Below are positions 48,962 through 54,109 of a stretch of 64,000 nucleotides of DNA, one piece after another. The notes beneath the pieces are model-generated. The model searched no databases and was not told the origin of the DNA. It was given only the letters and a program-made list of their open reading frames with translations. Made by a program: the position numbers and the translations under genes. This DNA comes from an uncultured Nitrospiraceae bacterium (lineage in GTDB: Bacteria > Nitrospirota > Thermodesulfovibrionia > Thermodesulfovibrionales > Dissulfurispiraceae). Position 1 is the first letter of the stretch; each line of letters starts with the position of its first letter. Location of the stretch: NCBI GenBank assembly GCA_963727805.1, contig CAVSHF010000005.1, positions 1,177,790 through 1,241,789 of the forward strand, written 5' to 3'.

Positions 48962-48994
48962 TTGATGAAATAACCTATGTGTCCAGGAGGGACG

Positions 48995-49990
48995 ATGAAA
49001 AAGATAAAAAGAGCCTGTTTGGTTGCTGTGTTCTGTGTAATCCTTCTACTCTCGATTCCGGTCGCACTTATGGCGGCCGATGAGGGTCTCGAATATACCG
49101 TCCAGAAAGGAGACACACTCTGGGATATCTCTTCGGGCAAACTCAAAGACCCGTTCCTTTGGCCAAAACTCTGGAAAGCCAATCCACACATTCACAACCC
49201 TCATTTGATCTATCCCAACGAGAAAGTCCTTATCCCATCTGAGTTATTGAAAGAAGAATTCCGCTCCGATAAAACAGTGCGGCTGGATACAAAAAGAAAG
49301 TTGATAACTCCCGGTTCCCTCGCCTCTTCCCGGTTCGTTCCAGCCATCAGAAGGGGCCCTATAGTAAGCAGGGAGGTCCTGCTCCAGAGCGGATATTTTG
49401 TAAAAGACGTAAAGCCAATGGGTAAGATCATCAGTTCACCCCTTGGGCAAACCCTTTTGGGGAATGGCGACGCCATTTATCTTAGTACCGCAGTAAAAGC
49501 TAATCCCGACGATAAATATTTTGTTATCACAGAGCCACAAGCCGTCCCGAACCCCCTCAACGACAAAGAGATCGCTGGTTATCTGGTAGAGCTCACAGGA
49601 GTTGCCGTGGTTACCGGGGATGATAACGGCAAGACCAAAGCAATAATCAGCGAATCCTACAAAGAGATTAATATCGGAGACAACATCATAGACTATTATA
49701 TTGTATCGCTTCCAGTTGCGCCCGCAATAGAGAGAAAGCCGTCTATTTCCGGCATTGTACTCGGAATATGGAATAATCGTGCTGAAAGCGGGAAAGATGA
49801 TGTAGTCTATCTCAGCGCAGGCGTCGGTCAGGGCGTAGAAATAGGCGATATATTTACGGTTATTTCAAGGACTAATCCCCGTCCCATAGTTGGGACTGTG
49901 CAGGTATTTTCTATCTCCGATGCCGGATCGGCTGCAATCATTAGACGGGCGACAAGTGAGATCAAGCCCGGAGACACCTTCGGGAACTAA
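48995..49990 (+). CDS. LysM peptidoglycan-binding domain protein
   Basis: Signal peptide; 'YTVQKGDTLWDIS...WPKLWKANPHIHNPHLIYP'; AGGAGG RBS. Confidence 0.9.
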   Translation: MKKIKRACLVAVFCVILLLSIPVALMAADEGLEYTVQKGDTLWDISSGKLKDPFLWPKLWKANPHIHNPHLIYPNEKVLIPSELLKEEFRSDKTVRLDTKRKLITPGSLASSRFVPAIRRGPIVSREVLLQSGYFVKDVKPMGKIISSPLGQTLLGNGDAIYLSTAVKANPDDKYFVITEPQAVPNPLNDKEIAGYLVELTGVAVVTGDDNGKTKAIISESYKEINIGDNIIDYYIVSLPVAPAIERKPSISGIVLGIWNNRAESGKDDVVYLSAGVGQGVEIGDIFTVISRTNPRPIVGTVQVFSISDAGSAAIIRRATSEIKPGDTFGN

Positions 49991-50024
49991 ATAAGTCTTA
50001 TAAAAAAAAGGGGGATGCAAAAGC

Positions 50025-50048
50025 CTAGCCCGTTCACAAAGGTGTTGA
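50025..50048 (+). repeat. Left terminal inverted repeat
   Basis: CTAGCCCGTTCACAAAGGTGTTGA. Confidence 0.92.
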
Positions 50049-50103
50049 CTTTTAGCCAGTAAGAACATATATATCCCTTATCAGAGATGATAGGGGATAT
50101 ATA

Positions 50104-51903
50104 TTGGACAATAATGATGTAAAGCCTAAACTCCGGATTCCGCTTCCCGTTGGGGACGTCCATGTCAATTTCTGCAAGAATCCGGCATGCCCTAACTTCG
50201 GGAACCCTGCAAGCCAGCAGAAACAGCCTCGTGGAAAGTACTCCGAAGGGAAAGAAAGAGACACTTATACCCTCAGTGGCGGCGATGAGCCGCTATCTGT
50301 TTTCCTAAAGTGCAATCTATGTGGCGAATATCCTACCGTTAAAAGCAACCTTGCAATCACTGAAGAGATTAATCGTATGTCCCGATATCTCACCTCAGAG
50401 AAAGGGATGATCTCATGCCCTAATCTGGGATGTCAGAACCACTCAGTCTCTATATCAACGCCGAAAAGTTACGCATCTTTCGGGAAAACCAAGGCCGGGT
50501 CTCAAAGGTATCGATGTCGCCTGTGCAGCAAAGTATTCTCTGTCGGCAAACCGACTACCCGGCAGAAAAAACCACATAAAAATGCAATGATATTTAAACT
50601 GCTCATGAACAAGGTCCCATTCATGCGTATTTGCGAAGTTGCGGGACTTGGCTCCATGAATGCTCTTTATTGGAAGATTGACTTCCTCCACAAGCAGTGC
50701 CTTGCTTTCGCCGCTTCCAAGGAACGCAAACTGCTTGACGGGTTTCCCATCAGACGGTTATATATTGGCACAGACAGGCAGAATTACATGGTCAACTGGT
50801 CTGATTCAGCAGACAAGCGCAATATCGTGCTCCATGCGGTGGGCAGTGCCGACAACAAAACCGGATATGTATTTGGTCTTCACCTTAACTTTGACCCGGA
50901 TATCGATGCCATAGCAACATCCCGCGATGCCAAAGAGTCCGGAGACCTTGAGATGAAGATACCTTTTAGAAAGCACGCTCGTGTGTGGCTGCCAGAAGAT
51001 TACGATGAATCTAGTAGGGCAAGTTTAAAGAGACGCGGGATTGAAACTTATGGCACCCTGCAGGAAGGGATTGCCAGTGCCTATAGTGAAGCACAGGAAC
51101 GGGAGGATATCGAGGTTTTTGAAGAAAAGGACTTTAACACACGGCTACCGGCGGATGGGATGCAGGTGCATGCGGAATATACTCTTTATGGGCACTTCTT
51201 CTTCCTGAGACAGCTTTTCGGCGGCGTTGAGAAGGTAAGGTTCTTCTTGGATCAGGACTCTGGGATGAGAGCGGCCTGTCTGAGTGCTTTTGTCGATGGG
51301 ATTAAAGAGAAAAACTGCGATGCCTTCTATGTCAGGATCAACAAGTACCTTACAATCAATGAGAAGCGCCAGGCGATGGCTGCTGTTCGCAAGGAATGGG
51401 AAAATGCTAAAAGGGAGAATCCGCGACTGTCCGACTCCAAGTTAAAGTTGCTACTCATTAAACGGCGCATGAATAATGTTATGCACTTCGGGAAGTGGCA
51501 GGACAAATGGATATACCATCCCTTTCCGAGTCTTAGTGAACCCGAAAAGGCCATTTGTTATCTTACTGATGTCCAAGGATATGAAGAAGACCACCTTGCC
51601 TGGCTTTATAACAAAGCCAGCCTCCACGCAATAGACAGGTTCTTTATGCAGATCCGCAGGAGATTGTCCCTATTGGAGAGACCCCTCGCAACTTCCAGCG
51701 GGGCCTGGCGGAAATGGTACGGGTACAGCGCGTACAATCCGGCGATGGTTATCAAAATGCTTGATATATTTCGGGTTTTCTATAATTACATCGAGGTGGG
51801 GAAAGATGGGAAAACGCCGGCCATGAGATTAGGGCTTGCAAAAGGCAAAGTCGATGTGCAGGGCATTATTTATCATGACAGTGCTTCGAACTACTCACCA
51901 TAG
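50104..51903 (+). CDS. Putative transposase, long IS1-like (two Zn-ribbon modules, HTH, RNase-H-like core)
   Basis: CKNPAC...CNLC and CPNLGC...GKTKAGSQRYRCRLC (InsA-like); candidate catalytic residues 'IGTDRQ', 'FFLDQD', 'HAIDRFFMQIRRRL'; C-terminal 'KTPAMRLGL'; only large ORF between the TIRs; TTG start. Confidence 0.82.
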   Translation: MDNNDVKPKLRIPLPVGDVHVNFCKNPACPNFGNPASQQKQPRGKYSEGKERDTYTLSGGDEPLSVFLKCNLCGEYPTVKSNLAITEEINRMSRYLTSEKGMISCPNLGCQNHSVSISTPKSYASFGKTKAGSQRYRCRLCSKVFSVGKPTTRQKKPHKNAMIFKLLMNKVPFMRICEVAGLGSMNALYWKIDFLHKQCLAFAASKERKLLDGFPIRRLYIGTDRQNYMVNWSDSADKRNIVLHAVGSADNKTGYVFGLHLNFDPDIDAIATSRDAKESGDLEMKIPFRKHARVWLPEDYDESSRASLKRRGIETYGTLQEGIASAYSEAQEREDIEVFEEKDFNTRLPADGMQVHAEYTLYGHFFFLRQLFGGVEKVRFFLDQDSGMRAACLSAFVDGIKEKNCDAFYVRINKYLTINEKRQAMAAVRKEWENAKRENPRLSDSKLKLLLIKRRMNNVMHFGKWQDKWIYHPFPSLSEPEKAICYLTDVQGYEEDHLAWLYNKASLHAIDRFFMQIRRRLSLLERPLATSSGAWRKWYGYSAYNPAMVIKMLDIFRVFYNYIEVGKDGKTPAMRLGLAKGKVDVQGIIYHDSASNYSP

Positions 51904-51999
51904 GGGTAATATGATGTAAGAGCAACGAATACCAAAGGGGGTAGGTTATGCAACACGCAGTGAACTTTGTTCTAACGTTAGCAATAAGAGGGGGGGCAT

Positions 52000-52188
52000 A
52001 TGGCTCGTAAACTAAACATCAGAATAGCAACCGGGAAGACGCTTGAAGAAGCGGCCAGTCAACTCCAAGGGGTTCTACTTCATGGAGAAGATGGTGAAGT
52101 TTTATTGGGTTCTCATGTTGTTTTAGATGGAGACAAAGTGAGCATTGTGCTCATAGATTCTGTCATGGATTCAAAGGTAGACCCATAA
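52000..52188 (+). CDS. Small passenger ORF (62 aa), unknown function
   Basis: GAGGGGGG RBS; inside the element. Confidence 0.5.
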   Translation: MARKLNIRIATGKTLEEAASQLQGVLLHGEDGEVLLGSHVVLDGDKVSIVLIDSVMDSKVDP

Positions 52189-52241
52189 TAAGTAGAACCA
52201 CCATCTATTCCGACGGCCTGGTAGGAGTTCTCCAATCAGGC

Positions 52242-52445
52242 CTATTTTTTATAAAAAACAAAAAGCAAAGAAAAGATAACGTATTGATTTGCGGGCAATG
52301 AAGTTGTATGGGTAATAGTTATTCCAGAGTTTTCATCCCTTGAAAGCCATTTATTGATGATAGATTCAAACTGAGTCACATCGCTTCCATCATTCCCGTC
52401 GATTTTAAATACTTTGCATGCATTTAACATGAGATCATCTTCCAA
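52242..52445 (-). CDS. Small passenger ORF (about 62-67 aa), Cse60-like pattern
   Basis: 'KVFKI...FESIINKWLS...ITITHT...FSLLFVFY'; convergent on the previous ORF; start uncertain. Confidence 0.45.
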   Translation of the reverse strand: MEDDLMLNACKVFKIDGNDGSDVTQFESIINKWLSRDENSGITITHTTSLPANQYVIFSLLFVFYKK

Positions 52446-52580
52446 GTATTAGATTGTTAGTTATGTAAAAACAGATGCGCAGGCACAATTTTTCATAGAA
52501 ACTCGCTTTTATATACTTTCAAAATATTTACAATACGGTTTATGTATAATCTCAGGGGAAATTTCTTGTCAGTAAATGGG

Positions 52581-52612
52581 AGCCTCTAACCATTTGAAGG
52601 TTAGAGGCTTTT
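52581..52612 (+). terminator. Internal terminator-like hairpin near the right end of the element
   Basis: AGCCTCTAACC-ATTTGAA-GGTTAGAGGCT (11-bp stem) followed by TTT. Confidence 0.7.
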
Positions 52613-52632
52613 AGCCCTTTTGTCTGCTTCGA

Positions 52633-52656
52633 TCAACACCTTTGCGAACAGGCTAG
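52633..52656 (-). repeat. Right terminal inverted repeat
   Basis: TCAACACCTTTGCGAACAGGCTAG. Confidence 0.92.
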
Positions 52657-52687
52657 TGCAAAAGCATCCCCTTTTTTTGCCTATTTA

Positions 52688-54109
52688 TTAACTTGTCAAG
52701 ATCTTTAATGCCCTCAACCGGCTCGGATGCTTCAGCTTCCTGAGAGCCTTGGCTTCTATCTGACGGACGCGTTCCCTGGTAATAGACAGAAACCTCCCCA
52801 CCTCTTCAAGAGTGTGGTCTCTATCGACTCCGATACCAAACCTCATCCTGATAACCGTCTCCTCCTTCGGAGTTAACGTCCTCAATACGCGCTGAATCTG
52901 CTCGGAGGTCTCGATCCGTTCGGCATCGGAATACGGAGAGGGGCTCGCTTTGTCCCCAATAAAATCTTCCAGTTCCGTATCTTCATCGCCGATGGGTGTC
53001 TGGAGCGCTATCGGGTCCTGAATCGCCCTGAAAACTTCCTCGACTTTTCGAACCGGTACGATCAATTTCTTTGCGATTTCCTCGTTGACCGGTTCGCGGC
53101 CGAGCTCCTGAGTGAGTTCTCTAGATGCTTTTGTCACTCGATTGTAGAATTCCATCATATGGACGGGCACGCGTATGGTCTTCGTCTGGTCGATAAGTGC
53201 CCTCGTGATAGCCTGTCTTATCCACCACGTTGCATATGTGCTGAATTTAAACCCTTTTTCGTACTTAAACTTATCGACAGCCTTCATGAGACCTATATTC
53301 CCTTCCTGAATAAGATCCAGAAGTGGCAAGCCCCTGCCAACATAATTCTTCGCTATATTGACAACCAGTCTTAGGTTTCTCGTTATCAGTTCATTCTTTG
53401 TCTCGCCGACTAGGTATCTAGCCTTCGATATCTTACTCCACATGTCCTTAAGGGCGTCAGCCTTTATGCCCACTTCGGCCTCGATTTTTTTGTATTCCGC
53501 CTGGACATCCTTCAGGAGCGTTTCTATTTTTTTCGGACTCTGCCCCTTCTTCTTCTTTTCATTAACGGTTGCTCTAAGTTCTTTCAAGGAACCGTATCTC
53601 TTTATCTTTTTGTCGGCATAATCCATGATTGCCATCAGTTCCTCGAGCCGCACAAGGGTTTTGATCAGCGCCTCATCAGCCTTCTCCTCTTCGGGAAGTG
53701 CCTCTTCCTCATCTTCGACAGTAAGGGTGTCCTTGATCTTGTCAAATAGAGGCAGGGTAGTTATTGTGCCTCTTATGATCTCCCGTCCCTCTTCAAGCTT
53801 CTTTGCCAGTTCTATCTCTTCATACTTGGTGAGGATTGAGATATCCCCCATCGAGTTAAAATACGCCTGAACGAGGTCCTCGGCTCGTTCCTGCTCTTCG
53901 ACCTCTTCCTCCAGTTCCTCTTCGGGAGGAGCCCCCTCCTCGTAGTCGACAACCTTGACCCCCATGTCGCTGAGAACATCCATGAGATCTTCAATCTCGT
54001 CGGGAGAAAAAAATTCGGAAGGAAGTGCTTCATTTATTTCATCATAGGTGATGACACCGCGTCTTTTCCCTAAGTTTACAATCTCTTCAAATATATCTTT
54101 CTCTTTCAT
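52688..54109 (-). CDS. rpoD: RNA polymerase sigma-70 factor (RpoD-type)
   Basis: Region 1.1 'GKRRGVITYDEINEALP', 'NLRLVVNIAKNY', 'DLIQEGNIGLMKAVDKF', 'STYATWWIRQAITR', 'TRERVRQIEAKALRKL'. Confidence 0.92.
   Translation of the reverse strand: MKEKDIFEEIVNLGKRRGVITYDEINEALPSEFFSPDEIEDLMDVLSDMGVKVVDYEEGAPPEEELEEEVEEQERAEDLVQAYFNSMGDISILTKYEEIELAKKLEEGREIIRGTITTLPLFDKIKDTLTVEDEEEALPEEEKADEALIKTLVRLEELMAIMDYADKKIKRYGSLKELRATVNEKKKKGQSPKKIETLLKDVQAEYKKIEAEVGIKADALKDMWSKISKARYLVGETKNELITRNLRLVVNIAKNYVGRGLPLLDLIQEGNIGLMKAVDKFKYEKGFKFSTYATWWIRQAITRALIDQTKTIRVPVHMMEFYNRVTKASRELTQELGREPVNEEIAKKLIVPVRKVEEVFRAIQDPIALQTPIGDEDTELEDFIGDKASPSPYSDAERIETSEQIQRVLRTLTPKEETVIRMRFGIGVDRDHTLEEVGRFLSITRERVRQIEAKALRKLKHPSRLRALKILTS

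Follow-up and report, generated by a model that had tools for sequence, protein, structure and literature searches.

The subject of this analysis is a transposable element in the genome of an uncultured Nitrospiraceae bacterium, which occupies positions 50025-52656 (2,632 bp) of a 64,000-nucleotide stretch of contig CAVSHF010000005.1, hereafter the window. The element lies between two convergent host genes, a LysM-domain gene on the plus strand (lysM, 48977-49990), whose end is 25 bp ahead of the insertion, and the sigma-70 gene rpoD on the minus strand (52688-54109). Its ends are 24-bp terminal inverted repeats (IRs) at 50025-50048 (plus strand) and 52633-52656 (minus strand), which differ at two positions (92% complementary) and form the top-ranked inverted pair within 48-55 kb of the window. 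Directly outside them, the direct repeat TGCAAAAGC stands on the plus strand at 50016-50024 and 52657-52665 and matches over exactly 9 bp, lengths of 8, 10 and 11 bp having failed. As a check on chance, the 24-mer IR was found, with zero to three mismatches, as four facing pairs in the host genome and nowhere else at fewer than five mismatches, and a degenerate IR pattern gave eight matches in that genome (G000) versus none for the reversed control. The first-pass annotation of this DNA had already described a fully delimited element of ~2.6 kb with these ends and this repeat, a description that stands unchanged.

The element's main open reading frame (ORF; 50104-51903, plus strand) starts with TTG and encodes a transposase of 599 amino acids (aa). 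Ahead of it are a -35-like hexamer at the inner end of the left IR (50045-50050) and a -10-like hexamer (50068-50073), the latter overlapped by a left subterminal hairpin with 17-bp arms (50067-50104, plus strand) that lies over the transposase ribosome-binding site and has a presumed function there. A right subterminal hairpin, terminator-like on the plus strand, is located at 52577-52613. Two tiny ORFs that the first-pass annotation had read as cargo are indeed present between the transposase gene and this hairpin, but they fare differently. The 62-aa ORF (52000-52188, plus strand) is an orphan passenger with a G-rich ribosome-binding site; a homologue search returned only the protein itself, and its best Atlas match was 0.77. 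The 67-aa ORF (52242-52445, minus strand) is doubtful as a gene, with no Pfam, NCBIfam or PADLOC match and no further copy in the genome or in the loci compared. Rfam gave no match across 49900-52800.

Removal of the element together with one copy of the repeat restores a hairpin with a 15-pair stem and a loop of 4 nt (-22.6 kcal/mol), which has an A-run on one side and a T-run on the other. This empty site is the bidirectional intrinsic terminator of lysM and rpoD, and the duplication spans its loop; that a terminator loop is the target had escaped the first-pass annotation. The left half of the split terminator (A-run, G-rich stem arm and loop) is found at 50002-50024 and the right half (loop, C-rich arm and T-run) at 52657-52679. 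The uninterrupted lysM-terminator-rpoD site that the first-pass annotation had envisaged exists both in a related genome and in contigs of sequencing runs. A genome of the same genus (G403) has a near-identical unbroken hairpin at lysM/rpoD, and contigs of two sequencing runs from two studies (X5 and X8) join position 50012 to 52657 with one extra base, which amounts to a single repeat copy. Contigs of run X1 cross both occupied junctions, and those of run X2 cross the right one; no RNA data set was listed as containing the element. Among the relatives' lysM loci, 16 of 19 have rpoD 25-117 bp away, and none of the 16 contains a transposase. These empty sites rule out a non-mobile conserved gene, and only 7 of 401 genomes in a sample of the phylum have a match. 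A reading of CTAG, with which the IRs begin, as a 4-bp duplication in the style of IS5/IS701 is likewise ruled out, as the 9-bp repeat lies outside CTAG and the empty sites are without it.

The placement of relatives was examined at 91 loci with an IR pair. A duplication of 9-10 bp, with no more than one mismatch, was present at 49 of them and missing from the ends used at 35, and the other seven had flanks that were too short. One locus (L140) was counted as being without a duplication owing to a one-base choice of end, its 9-bp repeat lying one base further out. Removal of six duplicates left 43 distinct sites, 35 of them exact, with duplications of 9 bp at 31 and 10 bp at 12. Relatives share IRs and 9-10-bp duplications in unrelated contexts. 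The CTAG-starting IR of ~24 bp with a 9-bp duplication, for which the first-pass annotation proposed to test homologues, held in part: IRs and duplications recur, the latter of 9 or 10 bp, but CTAG is not a family signature, as the end motifs are C-T/A/G/C-AG or TAAG. Sites were scored for Watson-Crick palindromes with a threshold of 7, fixed beforehand, and an allowed offset of +/-2 nt. At least this score was reached at 25 of the 43 sites, comprising 17 of 29 in the clade near the window's element, 7 of 13 for Tn7491, a transposon associated with the trimethoprim-resistance gene dfrG that is treated below, and the single Pontibacillus site (1/1). At all 25, the palindrome axis lies no more than 0.5 nt from the middle of the duplication, and at 18 the two coincide exactly. 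The corresponding control rates were 0.67% for random locus positions (4,300 scored), 0.48% for non-ORF positions in the host genome (4,000 scored), and one of 11 sites of other insertion sequences (IS) of IS1/IS1595 type; this last set was confined to those types, as IS256 loci gave no usable end or duplication calls. Additionally, an A-run on the left combined with a T-run on the right was observed at 12 of 13 Tn7491 sites (control 4.6%) and at 13 of 29 near-clade sites (control 0.7%). L202 and L204 are insertions of opposite orientation into an identical 9 bp of one terminator.

These positional data bear on the idea that insertion is loosely random and that only copies in terminators survive selection. 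The sites were necessarily drawn from surviving genomes, in which an insertion does least harm at intergenic gene ends. Selection, however, would not be expected to place every one of the 25 scoring sites within half a base of the hairpin axis or to bring two insertions of opposite orientation to one and the same 9 bp, and other IS in the same phylum are without the pattern (1/11). We regard selection alone as a very improbable explanation.

A different question is what the transposase would read at such sites. The target may be recognised as a DNA structure, an extruded cruciform or a hairpin of single-stranded DNA that supercoiling, or transcription at gene ends, would promote, rather than through the sequence of its arms. 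This would agree with the exact centring on the hairpin axis, with the lack of a stem sequence common to the 19 near-clade 9-bp sites, and with a genome (G301) in which each of the three copies (L008, L014 and L016) occupies the loop of a domain V hairpin of a group II intron, not of a terminator; that genome has 35 RF00029 matches. However, GGCAG/CTGCC arms are specific to one lineage, where they occur at 21 of 27 left and 25 of 30 right flanks versus 0 of 34 and 1 of 37 in other lineages, which points to arm reading. Six Tn7491 sites have weak stems, five of which retain the A- and T-runs, in favour of a symmetric reading of arm sequence or shape in duplex DNA, and a staggered 9-10-bp duplication across the loop is of the type expected for duplex DNA. 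Recognition of structure rather than arm sequence is considered rather unlikely. The lineage with the fixed arms, from metagenome loci among L030-L101, has elements of ~1.97 kb with ends CGAGCCGATCG...; nearly all of its insertions fall between GGCAG and CTGCC arms, and the loop of its left hairpin contains the likely -10 hexamer.

The domain order of the 599-aa protein is four cysteine pairs (aa 24-141), a helix-turn-helix (HTH, ~157-211), an RNase H core interrupted by two large insertions, and a C-terminal tail of the IS1-like form YN..TPAM.LGL. Each of the eight N-terminal cysteines is kept in 127-132 of 132 family sequences. In an AlphaFold2 model built with these 132 sequences (predicted local distance difference test, pLDDT, 94.5; predicted template modelling score, pTM, 0.94), strands 216-230, 240-250, 256-261, 375-383 and 405-412 and helix 508-520 follow the RNase H order, and the protein is accordingly modelled as an RNase H-type transposase fold. 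Fold searches placed ISCth4 (Z 11.9, root-mean-square deviation 3.6, 233 residues aligned) and Tn5 (Z 11.3, deviation 5.9, 277 residues) in a tied first position, followed by Hermes and integrases; no IS1 transposase appeared among the folds listed, an absence that does not count as evidence of difference. A sequence search of the PDB with the protein returned zinc fingers only. The putative catalytic triad consists of D224 (codon 50773-50775, strand 216-230), which is Asp in 132 of 132 sequences; D383 (codon 51250-51252, end of strand 375-383), which is Asp in 126 and Glu in 5; and probably D511 (codon 51634-51636, start of helix 508-520), at the position of the DDE glutamate, with Asp in 117, Asn in 12 and Glu in 1, all three codons being on the plus strand. 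An arginine seven residues beyond the D511 position (R518) is present in 130 of 132. Because E479 and E525 are conserved in the family too, the third ligand is inferred, not proven.

The ends of the elements have a recurrent architecture. Among 57 distinct left ends, 48 have a -35-like, TTG-starting hexamer at IR positions 21-26, and 26 have a -10-like hexamer 16-18 nt beyond it. A count by hand, without a matched control, gave subterminal hairpins scoring at least 7 at 43 left and 35 right ends, out of 57 each. In the window's element, RNA coming from lysM folds the left hairpin over the ribosome-binding site, whereas RNA that starts inside the hairpin cannot form it. IS10 likewise hides its ribosome-binding site in RNA that enters from outside.

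Altogether, these observations are best explained by an autonomous IS of an unclassified, IS1-related family with an RNase H fold that is aimed at terminator loops and habitually inserts there, a reading to which we assign a probability of roughly 0.8. In the proposed mechanism, a single transposase would bind both 24-bp ends via its zinc-ribbon/HTH region and use D224, D383 and probably D511 for strand transfer. A symmetric transposase complex would read the two palindrome arms, with the A-run and GC arm on one side and the GC arm and T-run on the other, and would cut 9-10 bp apart across the hairpin loop. Landing between gene ends would spare coding DNA, and the element's own subterminal hairpins would stand in for the terminator that it splits, the left one also concealing the ribosome-binding site of the transposase gene in any transcript that comes in from outside. 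Passengers such as restriction-modification genes, toxin-antitoxin genes and dfrG would ride between the transposase gene and the right end.

Several points weigh against this reading. Transposition itself was not observed, and the triad assignment comes from conservation, alignment and secondary structure without measured distances. The catalytic core gave no significant match to IS1 InsB profiles (probability 0.1). The -10 hexamer of the window's element is poor, and a promoter scan did not list that promoter. The palindrome threshold was not reached at 18 of the 43 sites, including one in the same genome (E2, below; score 2) and the Tn7491 site L197, where no hairpin was found. Duplications were missing at the ends used in 35 of the 91 loci, 32 of which are metagenome contigs; in 21 of these 32 the two flanks even so make up a palindrome, and it is assumed that assemblers merged copies from different terminators. 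Finally, the sites cannot be counted as independent: those from metagenomes represent the 80 best of 407 matches, 30 of 67 distinct flank pairs come from one lineage, and the sample is biased to close relatives. A clean IR pair with a duplication was not found at L004, L123, L132 (a Vibrio locus with a shorter, divergent homologue), L134, L137, L138, L139 and L141.

The first-pass annotation had proposed a search for further copies in this genome. Three elements with the same ends were found, none of which is a second copy of the element at 50025-52656. E2 (L001; C3:2256096-2259602, 3,507 bp) has a 10-bp duplication, a frameshifted transposase gene with a product 78% identical to the 599-aa protein, and a PIN-domain gene. 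E3 (L002; C3:651719-652777, 1,059 bp) has no transposase gene, no exact duplication, and a DUF433 and DUF5615 pair. E4 (L003; C5:1066534-1069040, 2,507 bp) has a 10-bp duplication in a terminator loop, a truncated transposase gene, and an Xre/MbcA and RES pair. Each of the three thus carries toxin-antitoxin-type genes, and the copy in the window is apparently the only intact member of the four; E2, E3 and E4 may depend on its enzyme. As these three are separate lineages and not copies, there is no sign of a recent burst, and a recent expansion of the window's element is rejected, as the genome holds no second copy of it and the other three elements are diverged or without the gene. The proposal of recent activity is only weakly supported: the element is absent from close strains, but it is single in its genome and no date is possible. 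The ratio of non-synonymous to synonymous polymorphism (pN/pS) of the transposase gene was 0.19-0.25 versus three relatives. Runs X2 and X5, each with loose ends at window position 52656, both contain the E4 junction, and X5 also contains the empty lysM/rpoD site, so that E4 may be older than the copy in the window. Other features observed in the host were 15 matches to group II intron 3' ends, ten of them with an identical score, tandem repeats of ~228 bp near C3:1992600-1994300, and what appears, by eye from the ORF listing, to be the start of a ribosomal RNA operon just past rpoD (window position ~54200 onward).

Beyond this genome, 1,403 homologues of the 599-aa protein were found among 7,999 candidates scored. 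Clustering at 50% identity gave 443 clusters at E-values up to 1e-30 and 1,736 at up to 0.001, some of the latter probably partial. The nearest named homologues are from Nitrospirota assemblies, and nearly all members are unnamed in their records or called 'transposase-like', with one named 'IS1 family transposase'. Viral collections yielded one relative and two phage records with Tn7491; a loose IR scan gave 30 loci, none of which had a transposase match. Elements of 1.86-2.09 kb with only a transposase gene make up 48 of 67 near-clade loci. Extra ORFs were present in 21 of the 23 larger or non-autonomous elements examined, with restriction-modification genes in nine, toxin-antitoxin-type genes in five (two nearly identical), a nested IS in two and nothing recognisable in five. 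By eye, homologues of 826-964 aa (P0128, P0151, P0154, P0168, P0204 and probably P0175) extend into a DEDDh exonuclease-like domain, and a separate RNase_T exonuclease gene is located at L140:4578-5132.

How this family relates to curated ones was addressed with profile searches. No Pfam or NCBIfam model exceeded its cut-off with the 599-aa protein; the best was NF033558 (IS1), at 35.6 bits against a cut-off of 100 over residues 126-253, and the IS1/IS1595 zinc model NF050000 reached 25.7 bits against 28. One alternative is that the element is an ordinary IS1-family element of unusual length already present in ISfinder, such as those of the passenger-carrying ISMhu11 group, a name that was found in 0 papers. 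Among 78 diverse members, 69 match NF033558 below cut-off (best E 1.4e-12) and 68 match the zinc model; the HTH and C-terminal tail align with those of the IS1-like proteins of loci L128-L131 (probabilities 87 and 93; score 47 versus at most 16 in 20 shuffles); and the nearest Atlas cluster with a Pfam family (0.87) is DDE_Tnp_IS1, on 48% of that cluster's members. Membership is hard to reconcile, however, with the large shortfall from the NF033558 cut-off, with the lack of a Pfam DDE or transposase domain in all 78 members (neither PF03400 nor PF12762 matched), with a protein twice the length of the IS1-like proteins, with ends that do not start with GG as those of IS1A do, with Asp or Asn as third residue, or with records in which the Tn7491 enzyme is still an 'insertion element protein' or 'hypothetical'. 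We consider plain IS1 membership improbable; the most plausible view is that the family branched off the IS1 lineage. Comparison of segment-wise profiles (residues 210-265 and 368-412) with IS1-like, IS1, IS1595 and IS256 proteins gave nothing above shuffles, with small reference alignments of 1-19 sequences. The family tree was a quick version with an open backbone and was used only for the long branch of Tn7491. The literature search, which covered neither the IS registries ISfinder and TnCentral nor subscription papers and supplements, found no paper defining the family or its terminator targeting. The first-pass annotation was thus borne out in seeing a mobile element, related to IS1 but distinct and without a curated model, as the sub-cut-off matches, the missing Pfam domain and the empty sites agree.

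Its further suggestion of a possibly uncatalogued family does not hold in the sense of an unseen one, since Tn7491 has already been described; the family is apparently unclassified rather than unseen. Plasmid records matching the transposase numbered 133, of which about a hundred, enterococcal, staphylococcal, Listeria or Lactococcus in origin and matching at 24% identity, contain it as the gene adjoining dfrG. The dfrG transposon was reportedly first described inside Tn6198. The dfrG-associated element has 3,276 bp, 27-bp IRs and a 9-bp duplication, in agreement with Tn7491 (PMC10763498). The available text of that paper locates a second copy between convergent genes, states neither a family nor a target rule, and uses 'terminator', 'transposase' and 'hairpin' 0 times. 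The enzyme is labelled an insertion element protein in the text available from PMC8638950 and is called 'functionally uncharacterized' in that of a 2026 preprint (bioRxiv 10.64898/2026.03.26.714560). A further member of 2,010 bp, annotated as a hypothetical protein, was observed on a Pseudomonas aeruginosa plasmid (L022; CP136985.1) with a perfect IR pair and a 9-bp duplication, ~3.3 kb from a class 1 integron.

A broader proposal, which we hold tentatively and at slightly less than even odds, is that of an undescribed multi-phylum family with a D-D-D/N site whose single transposase finds the apex of any suitable hairpin, in terminators or in group II intron domain V, by structure or by a symmetric reading of the arms and needs neither a helper protein nor a guide RNA; its end hairpins would re-establish termination, and it would serve as a low-cost carrier of restriction-modification, toxin-antitoxin and dfrG genes. 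For the enzyme that moves dfrG, the main reading provides a family assignment together with a fold, candidates for the catalytic residues and a rule for the target, and it predicts terminator loops as the landing sites of such elements, making their spread traceable. More than 1,000 proteins now labelled hypothetical would become recognisable transposases. Base-precise aiming at the ends of transcription units, which would mirror the promoter aiming of Mutator-like families, raises the testable question of how a lone DDE-type enzyme recognises a hairpin. The copy in the window is a convenient model from a non-pathogen.

Among known systems, IS1 shares with this family the order of zinc ribbon, HTH and RNase H core, an I-D/E-R helix with Arg at +7, and a duplication of about 9 bp (9 or 10 bp in the family versus 8 in three IS1-family controls), and the YN..TPAM..GL tail is shared with L128-L131. 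IS1A of Escherichia coli, however, is 768 bp long, uses two frames to encode InsA (91 aa) and InsB (167 aa), and has GG-starting ends, whereas the window's element has CTAG ends, 2,632 bp and one 599-aa frame. The family further differs from IS1 in three extra cysteine pairs, two large core insertions, element sizes of 1.86-6.1 kb, hairpin-centred targets, and Asp or Asn at the third position, where InsB has the Glu of I-E-R. The mark of IS1595, DDE_Tnp_IS1595 (PF12762), was found in 0 of 78 members, and in a profile comparison with 19 IS1595 proteins the match was confined to the zinc ribbon/HTH (probability 29).

With the IS256/prokaryotic Mutator-like (p-MULT) element ISCth4, the top structural match, the family shares an RNase H core with a helical insertion after strand 5. 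The C/D(2)H signature that the available text of PMC3942029 places 11-19 aa after the second Asp was present in only 2 of 132 members, the profile probability was 0.9 (no match), and the target is a terminator, not a promoter, at which some IS256/p-MULT families aim according to the same text. IS4 itself is said to favour terminators. The section text of PMC2266710 contains no such statement, but it reports conserved target arms for an IS4 subgroup. The IS4 motif Y(2)R(3)E(6)K given there is replaced by K/L/D/R at positions 504/507/511/518. IS1397, IS621 and IS1594, which insert at repetitive extragenic palindromic (REP) sequences according to the text available from PMC3184786, provide with IS4 a precedent for extragenic palindromes or symmetric arms as targets, with unrelated transposases.

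Tn7491 is the closest parallel among the described elements. Its transposase is a homologue with 24% identity (residues 19-590); compared with the family profile it gives an E-value of 9e-86 (positions 20-593), and it shares the zinc, core and tail motifs. Terminal IRs (27 bp with a TAAG start in Tn7491), a passenger downstream of the transposase gene and sites in terminator-like hairpins are also common to both, and Tn7491 duplications are 9 bp at 11 of 13 sites and 10 bp at 2 of 13. Tn7491 differs in its Firmicutes hosts, its long tree branch, a protein of 650 aa with Asn at the third position, a small ORF upstream of the transposase gene, and an IR sequence that is unrelated after the first bases. 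The element at 50025-52656 is Tn7491-like in its terminal IRs, its 9-bp duplication and a transposase homologous over the full length, and the dfrG-spreading element of staphylococci and enterococci belongs to the same family.

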